The notes below the pieces were generated by a model, which searched no databases, was not told the origin of the DNA, and saw only the letters and a list, made by a program, of their open reading frames with translations. Positions 53,630-60,661 of a stretch of DNA of 64,000 nt are shown piece after piece. The translations under genes were made by a program, and so were the position numbers. Numbering within the stretch: position 1 is the stretch's first letter; each line of letters begins with the position of its first letter. The DNA comes from Polyangiales bacterium (GTDB lineage: Bacteria > Myxococcota_A > Polyangia > Polyangiales > JADJQN01): NCBI GenBank assembly GCA_964202905.1, contig CAXNJO010000005.1, positions 256,001 through 320,000 of the forward strand, written 5' to 3'.

Positions 53630-56600
53630 TCAGCGGCCCACCCGGACGACGTACGGATCGCCGAAGACGCGTGGATCGGTGCGGAAGTCGATCCACGCGA
53701 CGAGCGCGCCGTCGAACGCGCGCACGACCGCAGGCGTAACGGTCTGACCGGCCCCCGTGTCGAGGCGCGGGTCGGTCGTCTGCCAGGTCGCGCCTGCGTC
53801 GATCGACGCGGCCGCGTACGTGCGCGCGACGCCGAGGCGATCGTTCGTGTAGCCGACGACGACGAGGTCGCCGCCCGCCCACGTGATCGCCGGATCCCGC
53901 GTGACGCCCGTGAGCGCCGCGTCGCCGCTGCTCGAGGCGCGCCCCGCCGTGCCGAAGGTGGCGCCCGCATCGAGGCTCCGCGCGACGTAGATCTGCGAGC
54001 CCGCGCGCGTGTCCTCCCACGCGACGAACACGCGGTCGTCCGTCGCGCTCGCCGTGCCCGGATCGACGTCGAGCGTGACGTCGAGCGAGCTCGACACCTC
54101 GCCCGCCGGGTCGTCGAGGATGCGCTCCGCGGCCCAGCTCACGCCCTGCGTCGTCGAGCGCGCGAACACGATGTCCGAGCCGCCGCCCGCACCCGTGGCG
54201 ACGTCCTCCCACGCGACGTAGACGTTGTTGCCCGCGACGACCGCCTCCGGCAGATCGCTCTGCCGCGTGTCGCCCGTGTCCGCGTCGATTCGCACCTCGG
54301 CCGCACCGACGAACGCGCTCGCCGCGCCGTCGACCCAGTTCGCGTAGACGTCGAAGGTCCGCCGCCCCGCGCGGATCTCACGCCACATCACGACGAAGCG
54401 ATCCGCGCCCGTGACGACGACCGTCGGACGGCCCGCCTGCGGGCTCGCGCCGCTGTTCACCGTCACGCGCTGCGCCGCGCCGAAGTTCTGCCCGAAGTCG
54501 ATCGAGCGGCGGATGACGACGTCGCGCGTGAGCGTGCCCGTCGCGAGCTGCTCCCAGACCACCGCGATGTGCTCGCCATCCGCGGAGACGGCGACGTCGT
54601 GGTGGAAGACGTCGATGCTGCCGCCCGCGTCCATGCGCGCGCCGCTGAGCGGGACGATGAAGTTCACACCCGCGTCGATCGAACGCACGACGAAGAGCTG
54701 CCGGATGCCACCGGCGACCTCCTGCCACGCGACCACCACGCGGTCCGTGCCGAGCACGGGGTCGAAGGCCACGGCGATGATCGGGACCACCGCCGCGCTG
54801 GCCGTGCCGGTCGTCAGGCTCTGCACGTCCTGCCAGGTCACGCCCCCGTTCGTCGATCGGCGGAGGAGCACGTCGGCGGCGCCGTTGCGGAGGTCGCTCC
54901 ACACCGCGTAGACGTTCGTCCCGCGCGTCGCGCCACCGTAGGCGAGGCGCACGTCGTAGGAATGAAACGCGCCCGCGACCGATGTCTGCAGGCCGCCGCC
55001 GCCGCCATCGAGGCGGAACTCGCCGCCCGCCGCGAGGCAGCCCTCGGCGACGTCACCGAGCGCGTCGCAGTCCGTGTCGAGCGCGTCGCCGCAGCGCTCG
55101 GCCCCGGGCACGATCTGGCCGACACACCCGCCAAGCGTGCCGAACGCGCAGGTCTGCGTGCCCGCGACGCAGGTGCCGACGCCCGCGGTGCCGACCGTCC
55201 CCGTGTAGCAGGACTGCGTGAACGGCCCGCCCCCCGCGGCCTCGTCCGTGGCGTTGTCGCAGTCGTCGTCGATGCCGTTGCAGGACTCGCTCGTCGGCAG
55301 GACCTCGCCGACGCAGGCGCCCGCGAACGCGCCGCCCGTGCACGCGCGCGCCCCGCCGCGACACGCGCCGACCCCGGAGGTCGCGGGCGTGCCCGTGTAG
55401 CAGGCCTGCGTGAGGCCCTCGTCGGCCGCGCCGTCGCAATCCTGGTCGCGCGCGTCGCACGTCTCGGGGACCGGCACCGTCTGCCCGCCGCACACGCCGA
55501 AGGTCCCGGCGACGCAGGTCTGTTCGCCGCCGACGCAGAGACCGACGCCCTCGGTGCTCGCCGTGCCCGTGTAGCAGGGCTGCGTGAGCGGGCCGCCCAC
55601 CGCGTCCTCGTCGACCGTCCCGTCACAATCGTCGTCGACGCCGTTGCACGTCTCGGGGCTCCCGCCGAGCGCCCCGACGCACACGAGCGCGCCCGCGACG
55701 CAGGCCTGCGAGCCCTCGACGCATGCGCCAACCGCGCTGCCGCACGCCGCACCGTCGTCGATCGGGTCGTCATCGACCGCACCGTCGCAGTCGTCGTCGA
55801 CGCCGTTGCACAACTCCGGAGACGCCTCGGTCGCGCCCGTGCAGACGAGTGCGCCGAGGGAATCACAAACGATGGTGCCGCGTGCGCAGCGTCCGACGTC
55901 GGAGCCGCACGCGGCGCCGAGCGTCGCGTCGGTGGGCGCGTCGTCCACCGTGCCGTCGCAGTCGTCGTCGAGGCCGTTGCAGCGCTCGGCCGAGGGATCC
56001 ACCTCGCGCTCGCAGCCGGGCACGCCGCCCACGCAGGTGCTGAGTCCCGCGGTGCACACGCCCTCGGCCGCAGAGCACACGCGCCCGACGTCGACGGGCG
56101 AGTCGTCCACCGCGCCGTCGCAGTCGTCGTCGAGGCCGTTGCAGGTCTCGGCGCGCGGCACCTCCGCGCCGAGACAGACGAGCCGCGCGGCGATGCACGT
56201 GGTCGTGCCGGTGTCTGTGCAGATCCCCGTCGCGACGCCGCCCGGGGCGCGGTTGCAGGCGCCGCCCGCGTCGGTCGTCGCGCCGTCGACGGCGCCGTTG
56301 CAGTCGTTGTCGAGGCCGTCGCAGATCTCGACGCCGCCGTTCGTGACCGTGCAGGGGTACTCACAGCCGTCGAGCTGGTTCCCGTTGAAATCGCTGAACC
56401 CCGGCGTGCAGTCGGACATCGGATCGAAGCCGCAGACGCCCGCGGCGCAGCTCGGCGCCGCGTTGGGGAAGCTGCACACCCGCCCGCAGCGCCCGCAGTT
56501 CGCCACGTTGGTCGCGAGCGCGAAGTCCTCGTCCACCGGGCCGTCGCAGTCGTTGTCGAGGCCGTCGCAGATCTCGACGCCGCCGTTCGTCGGCGCGCAC

Positions 56601-60661: not shown

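Follow-up and report, generated by a model that had tools for sequence, protein, structure and literature searches.

A Myxococcota reading frame that probably encodes both legs of a two-legged surface adhesin

Some fused bacterial genes encode a product that is cut into two subunits of one complex; FbcH of Bradyrhizobium is an example. AcsAB of Gluconacetobacter hansenii is another, according to the available part of PMC4877109. Both yield subunits of membrane enzymes, with neither a sorting tag nor two lipidated new ends, unlike what we propose for the gene described here. Among proteins with sorting tags, TraA/TraB and the terminal substrates of the myxosortase MrtX/MrtC (TIGR03901, NF040914) share with our gene a signal peptide, a Cys-rich stalk, and a tag made of a Cys motif, a helix, and an Arg cluster (MYXO-CTERM). 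Also, in TraA/TraB the partner's gene comes next and overlaps, an arrangement like that of the 14 split loci that we describe below. In TraA/TraB, however, the tag is terminal, and the partner is an outer-membrane barrel rather than a lipoprotein with a length-matched stalk. In the model for terminal tags, the Cys of the tag is lipidated, myxosortase cuts on its distal side, and type II secretion (T2SS) then exports the protein (PMC11980579, available text).

Tags in the middle of a chain have been reported. Guo, Haft and Wall (mBio 2025, PMC11980579) noted rare ORFs with an internal MYXO-CTERM and proposed processing for MXAN_5598 of Myxococcus xanthus. Like our gene, MXAN_5598 has the MYXO-CTERM in mid-chain, which they ascribed to a two-gene fusion, and its N-terminal part is proposed to be processed and surface-anchored. 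Unlike our gene family, it is a single protein, which they called rare and atypical, and its second half is a beta-barrel/OmpA protein; the available text of that paper does not describe an internal signal peptide, a lipobox, a second cut, or a survey of the family. In Haloferax, the central archaeosortase site of HVO_0405 was shown to be cleaved: gene fusion moved a C-terminal tripartite tag to mid-chain, and the sorting protease still cuts there (PMC7157517, available text). HVO_0405 differs in that its tag is of the archaeal PGF type and the fusion is strain-specific, and the same portion of text reports no second export signal. NCBIfam also includes a family named midcut-by-XrtH (which we know by name alone). 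A literature search, with most subscription journals outside its scope, found no paper on a MYXO-CTERM-plus-lipobox junction, on the gene family described here, or on matched stalks. The idea of a polyprotein is already in print; what appears to be undescribed is the version with a lipobox, how widely it occurs, and the heterodimer of matched lengths.

The gene lies in a window of 64,000 nucleotides (the whole stretch of DNA that was analysed). A first-pass annotation, made from the window alone, had reported a single frame of 2343 aa without an internal stop. This is borne out, and the ORF is on the minus strand, which that annotation left out. Its division into a module A (DUF4114-like, ~11 repeats, and a Cys-rich region) and a module B (~11 repeats and an Asp-box propeller) also holds; we counted 11 repeats in each, and they belong to Pfam's PF11617. 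The features are:

53630..60661, minus strand: whole ORF, 2343 aa, a precursor of ~233 kDa, from the ATG at 60661 to the stop at 53630
60584..60661, minus strand: N-terminal Sec/SPase I signal peptide, aa 1-26, ending in A-R-A (from the sequence and its homologues)
59888..60583, minus strand: head of module A, aa 27-258, which contains DUF4114 and has a predicted LecB/PA-IIL-like fold and an invariant acidic motif
58082..59887, minus strand: stalk of module A, with 11 Cys/Asp-rich PF11617 repeats of ~55 aa each
57410..58081, minus strand: membrane-proximal Cys-rich region of module A and a Pro/Asp linker
57287..57409, minus strand: internal MYXO-CTERM-like tag, with a Gly-rich motif, Cys1092 (57386-57388), a linker, helix 1, and RRRR
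57311..57313, minus strand: in-frame GTG within helix 1, without a Shine-Dalgarno (SD) sequence and not conserved
57218..57286, minus strand: internal lipoprotein signal, with a short basic loop, helix 2, and the lipobox V-T-G-Cys1148 (57218-57220)
55040..57217, minus strand: stalk of module B, composed of a linker, 3 long units rich in Cys, and 8 short repeats of the PF11617 type
53633..55039, minus strand: head of module B, a beta-propeller with Asp boxes that lacks the (F/Y)RIP motif of sialidases

Within these features, Pfam places DUF4114 at aa 165-251 and BNR_2/Asp boxes at the end of the chain, and the 3 long Cys-rich units of the B stalk weakly match the MXAN_6577-like family NF041328. 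In the homologues, a hydrophobic stretch and a small residue directly precede the conserved mature start (by eye). GC3 is 0.91-0.99 in each block of 100 codons, including the block with the junction. Searching the ESM Atlas with the repeats matched only unnamed PF11617 clusters. The gene's neighbours in the window are, upstream (60769-63148), a class II glutamine amidotransferase (minus strand) and a carotenoid desaturase-like FAD protein (plus strand) in overlapping frames, and downstream (~53100-53630), a 4HBT thioesterase. This neighbourhood is not conserved: among the 63 loci listed (see below), the window's neighbours were found again only in L031, and no flanking family was present in more than 5 of them.

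The junction between the modules reads, in order, Gly-rich motif with Cys1092, linker, helix 1, RRRR, six residues, helix 2, and V-T-G-Cys1148. The residues that the first-pass annotation quoted are there, with both cysteines and the GTG (57313) at the positions above. The two helices rank above every other 19-residue window of the protein in hydrophobicity, and none of 3000 shuffles of the protein contained the junction pattern (which was defined after seeing the junction). The second half has the form of a lipoprotein signal, namely a basic n-region, a hydrophobic h-region, a small residue, and then an invariant Cys, but it is internal instead of being at the N-terminus of its own gene, and there is no conserved start there.

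The identification of the first half as a MYXO-CTERM stands in part. The tripartite arrangement of Cys motif, helix, and Arg cluster is present, but the HMM score is below the curated cut-off (10.3 bits for TIGR03901, cut-off 20) and the tag is not C-terminal: 1219 residues follow it, while it is terminal in 14 split orthologues. TIGR03382 did not match the window's tag, and scanning NCBIfam (hmmscan) with the full-length protein and with the junction gave no MYXO-CTERM hit either. Among 37 homologous junctions, 24 are above the cut-off of TIGR03901 or TIGR03382 and 13 are below; these models overlook some true members. The protein also has an N-terminal signal peptide, and the genome encodes a myxosortase (core of 119.7 bits for NF040914, cut-off 100). 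(A CPBP protease near one of the paralogues, on contig C4, is not the myxosortase.)

An error of assembly or sequencing might delete a stop codon, and other genes of the same assembly do have apparent frameshifts (C1:358k and C10:119k). The first-pass annotation had proposed checking raw reads for a stop or indel at the junction; contigs (not raw reads) from three runs bridge it without a gap: X1 (57129-57385) and X2 (57048-57372) have 0 differences across the junction, and X3 (57051-57402) has 7 substitutions. (X1, X2, and X3 are from one study, which may include the source of the assembly itself; for X4, the pieces listed did not include a bridging one.) The junction is also open in three members of the 90% cluster to which the protein belongs, all of them full-length, and 38 other genomes have the fusion. 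Because fused and split relatives both occur across the 63 loci listed, the join is not an artefact. We give an artefact virtually no chance and dropped it as refuted by the homologues.

To collect these relatives, we searched genome contigs with the head of A, which gave at least 63 loci (a sample). As had been asked of the homologues, the junction is fused in independent genomes: among the 63 loci listed, 38 are fused, 14 are split, and 11 are uninformative. Of the uninformative loci, 8 end short of the junction, the frame of L039 and that of L082 are broken ahead of it (L082 has an intact fused junction in the next frame), and L056 lacks the middle. (L056:8-1288 joins the A head to a partial propeller after two repeats, with no junction, due to an internal deletion or misassembly.) In one of the 38 fused loci, L079, the second half differs. 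The fused loci listed are labelled Sandaracinaceae, Kofleriaceae, Haliangiales, other Myxococcota, and, in one case, Polyangiaceae. All 14 split loci listed are Polyangiaceae, including the cultured Polyangium fumosum. The closest named relative among the matches listed is L031 (75% over the head), labelled Sandaracinaceae.

In all 14 split loci, the stop codon of A lies past the Arg tail. The ATG or GTG that starts B overlaps or adjoins A and has a strong SD, and B opens as a lipoprotein whose Cys is homologous to Cys1148; the pair of genes thus retains both cysteines of the fused form. The split orthologues show A truly ending in a predicted MYXO-CTERM and B truly starting as a putative lipoprotein at the homologous Cys. 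We also aligned 44 junctions (the window's, 37 of the 38 fused loci, and 6 other genes from the source genome). Both cysteines are invariant in 44/44, in part by construction because the rows were located with Cys-containing patterns; in four junctions that lack the pattern, both cysteines were there too when read by eye. The -1 position is G, A, or S in all 44, while the sequence between the two cysteines has a mean identity of 29%. The lipobox's -3 position is loose (L or V in 14/44 rows), and the split genes are no stricter. The fusion is conserved over several Myxococcota families, with both cysteines retained. The split loci form one clade nested among the fused loci in three trees (one of them a quick tree), and there are five changes between fused and split, summed over this family and a second family with other heads. 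With the second family as the outgroup, this suggests a fused ancestor and then several fissions, but monophyly of the fused loci (one fusion) is not rejected (AU test, P = 0.063).

The first-pass annotation suggested that module B might alternatively start at the in-frame GTG at 57313. B would then come mainly from an internal start, and the long frame would be a lost stop codon with little meaning. Some NTG codon does lie within the junction in 33 of 37 fused loci. The position of these codons is not conserved, though, and the other 4 loci have no ATG, GTG, or TTG between the two cysteines, so the alternative start finds no support as a feature of the family. Furthermore, the weakest SD among the 14 split starts (-9.3 kcal/mol) is stronger than any found in the 33: strong SDs are seen in the split genes and never in the fused ones. 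This argument is weaker for the source genome, where an SD is not obligatory, because the window's true ATG also lacks one (its SD score is -1.1, which is as weak as the GTG's -1.7). The window's GTG sits within helix 1, and A would still be produced as a read-through chain. We consider it very improbable that B is made mainly in this way, rather than from the long chain.

What might the two modules do together? The model of the A head has PA-IIL (1gzt) as its top match (Z = 6.6, which is middling, with rmsd 3.3 and 107 aligned), and its acidic motif is present in 60 of 61 loci. A sequence search of the PDB with the head alignment gave weak armadillo-repeat noise, which we rejected. The head can be compared with the LecB/PA-IIL lectins and with PilY1.1 from M. 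xanthus, whose DUF4114 carries an acidic Ca2+ motif and is proposed to bind sugar; the DUF4114 of PilY1.1 is proposed to bind Ca2+ and EPS (available text of PMC9109919). There, DUF4114 is at a pilus tip, while here it would be on a lipid-anchored stalk of repeats. The A head may be a Ca2+-lectin-like domain that binds glycans. The propeller of B was modelled with a pLDDT of 93 and resembles the sialidase-type fold, with Asp boxes, but the (F/Y)RIP motif of GH33 sialidases is in 0 of 28 rows.

A complex prediction for the A head with two repeats and B's last two repeats with the propeller scored 0.61, versus 0.01 for the best control. The score mark was attained by 116 of 157 solved complexes and by 2 of 215 mismatched pairs (these rates are rough, and our own alignments were used). 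The prediction runs had at least 61% of contacts in common, with a partner pLDDT of at least 78. On the A side, the predicted interface involves the first nine mature residues (including an invariant Asp and Gly) and the invariant acidic loops; on the B side, it involves a single propeller face, where it takes in an Arg and an Asp that are both invariant. (A sequence search found no solved complex of like kind.) Both folds and the head-to-head binding are predictions, and they support tip-to-tip binding of the A head to the B propeller. The first-pass annotation had the two released proteins as independent, which they probably are not; by complex prediction, they would be mutual binding partners.

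If A and B are anchored by opposite ends, then one stalk runs antiparallel to the other, and the heads can meet only when the two stalks match. In the window, A and B have 11 repeats each. For counting repeats, we kept 43 complete loci out of 52, after dropping 5 that are open-ended, 2 that are truncated, and 2 without a full propeller. (L067 was not entered.) In the complete fused loci, the two counts are within one of each other in 31 of 31 and equal in 26 (3/3, 7/7, 9/9, or 11/11). The 12 complete split loci have A/B counts of 5/4 (nine loci), 5/3, 9/6, and 13/8, so split pairs are matched less tightly than fused ones. Across 42 independent contrasts, the module lengths of A and B are correlated (r = 0.967). 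Where lengths changed by at least 45 residues, the changes were in the same direction and of like size in 8 of 9 cases (P = 0.039; kin are not independent, and there are just nine large contrasts).

In the second family, 8 of 20 loci were parsed as fused and 6 as split pairs (the other 6 are cut or unparsed). The offset in the parsed loci is mostly around 2 (13/11, 11/9, 21/18, 14/13, 14/10, 7/7). The source genome, G000, has three members:

G000:C1:263395-268515: second-family paralogue L108, with 9/7 repeats
G000:C4:69728-78517: second-family paralogue L109, with 20/18 repeats
G000:C1, ~355500-361400: second-family paralogue with 13/11 repeats and a frameshift in the tag's linker

All three are fused, and they share B's mature start and an FGE-sulfatase-like tail.

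Another explanation for the matched lengths is that the polyprotein is real but its products act independently, with lengths kept similar by exchange of repeats within the gene or by a shared reach through the surface layer. Repeats B6 and B7 are 50-57% like A-type repeats, which is closer than most B repeats are, and one thickness of the surface layer could set both lengths. A single thickness fails to explain the three paralogues, though, because they differ in length within one genome and keep a constant offset of two. Also, each stalk would require its own separate insertions, and the predicted interface is built on invariant residues of both heads. We view independent products as quite unlikely. 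Given the fused or split join, the length-matched halves, and the predicted tip-to-tip binding, a two-legged adhesin is probably what this single chain becomes once the cell has cut it.

The combination of tag and second signal is also found elsewhere in the source genome. An internal tag is followed by a lipobox in seven intact genes and in an eighth whose linker carries a frameshift, and by a second signal of the SPase I type in two others. Of 23 matches to TIGR03901 over the cut-off, 3 are internal. The cargoes are unrelated (amidase/unknown, GH15/alpha-amylase, NIDO, Ig/OmpA barrel, and repeats/FGE-like domain):

G000:C6:352983-357989: internal junction L107, GH15 joined to an alpha-amylase lipoprotein
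G000:C3:414205-416361: internal junction L105, amidase joined to an unknown lipoprotein
G000:C6:126355-130617: internal junction L104, two unknown domains
G000:C2:762035-764668: internal junction L103, NIDO protein joined to a repeat lipoprotein
G000:C2:618635-620017: internal junction L111, matrixin joined to a small secreted domain
G000:C5:384203-387415: L106, an Ig-like adhesin with an internal MYXO-CTERM, an SPase I-type signal, and an OmpA-domain barrel
G000:C10, ~119060-120754: L110, an internal MYXO-CTERM followed, close to a lipobox-like segment, by what appears to be a frameshift; the frame ends in a second tag

L106, which is a separate gene from the window's ORF, has the layout of MXAN_5598.

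In a sample from across the phylum, the best 30 loci include 7 fused with a lipobox (one of them from the source genome), 3 fused with an A-x-A signal, 3 tandems of tag, stop, and lipoprotein, and 17 terminal tags. In the tandem genes L115, L116, and L128, a terminal MYXO-CTERM ends in a stop that a lipoprotein-like signal immediately follows, one change short of fusion. Among 20 further loci, which were chosen for full-length matches without a stop, 14 have a lipobox and 6 have A-x-A (by eye). In five Polyangiaceae genomes (G166-G170), fused junctions look rare, with just 3 of the 150 matches listed covering the profile free of stops, so lineages may differ in how they use the linker. (We left a tally of 102 out of 121 genomes across the phylum unused because the profile matches terminal tags too.) Among 51 representatives from a junction-profile search, the chain runs at least 40 residues beyond the tag in 37, and 8 have two or more internal junctions per chain. 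(A 52nd representative, P0003, was the top match, and we rejected it as a spurious repeat.) In P0004, each of four units restarts like the protein's own N-terminal signal. P0004, P0005, P0007, P0008, P0015, P0024, and P0029 have two or three internal MYXO-CTERM-plus-signal junctions, some with duplicated units. P0006, a planctomycete protein of 2500 aa, has ten PEP-CTERM matches with a signal-peptide-like segment behind each internal one.

We think it likely that the window's gene encodes a secreted polyprotein, which would be cut by SPase I, myxosortase, and Lgt/LspA to give a 1:1 heterodimeric, two-legged surface adhesin. Module A would be exported by Sec and cut by SPase I after Ala26. Helix 1 would then stop transfer, leaving the Arg cluster in the cytoplasm, and helix 2 would serve as an internal signal for the export of module B. 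By the positive-inside rule, the hairpin would place both cysteines at the periplasmic face. There, Cys1092 would be lipidated and myxosortase would cut on its distal side, while Lgt would lipidate Cys1148 and LspA would cut before it, and the 55-residue hairpin would be discarded. This would leave A (~105 kDa) with a C-terminal lipid and B (~120 kDa) with an N-terminal lipid, and the type II system would probably carry both to the surface. One gene would give a 1:1 supply at a single translocon, and the matched stalks would seat A's Ca2+-lectin-like head on B's propeller at the tip. We infer this topology, the two cuts, the lipidation, the surface location, and the glycan binding, and also that LspA can act on a signal with a helix upstream of it.

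Alternatively, the chain might be left uncut or cut at one site, with the hairpin staying as a two-helix anchor and a single protein looping so that its two ends come together at the tip. In favour of this, the tag in the window is a degenerate one (10.3 bits, as above), an uncut chain would equally show length matching and head binding, and the available text of PMC11980579 allows for some uncleaved MYXO-CTERM protein at the surface. Yet both cysteines and the small -1 residue are retained over deep divergence, and the split orthologues function with free ends. At this position, other fusions have a signal of the A-x-A type, and in multi-unit chains every unit restarts with the residues of the chain's own N-terminal signal. 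We regard incomplete cutting as unlikely and prefer two cuts.

More broadly, we lean slightly towards the idea that a sorting tag followed by a signal peptide is a general linker for virus-like bacterial polyproteins, read by housekeeping membrane proteases (with 2-4 units for MYXO-CTERM and ~10 for PEP-CTERM). Here, the linker would deliver two-legged adhesins of an undescribed class. Their stalks, antiparallel and anchored at opposite ends, would scale together in the manner of a molecular ruler, bringing interchangeable heads into contact at a fixed distance from the cell. If this is true, then in Myxococcota many a long surface protein that counts as "single" is made up of two or more, which would change annotations and counts of surface proteomes, and the length-matched pair would indicate an undescribed adhesin architecture. 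The linker could also be used to display two proteins at the surface in a 1:1 ratio from a single gene. Because Sec, myxosortase, Lgt, and LspA would act on mid-chain signals, these chains would offer a direct test of substrate recognition, as well as of the lipid and the cut site of MYXO-CTERM. Besides the myxosortase, the source genome encodes LspA, several Lgt homologues, and GspD. It has at least five full-length Lgt-family genes versus one LspA, and these are candidates for the enzyme that lipidates MYXO-CTERM.
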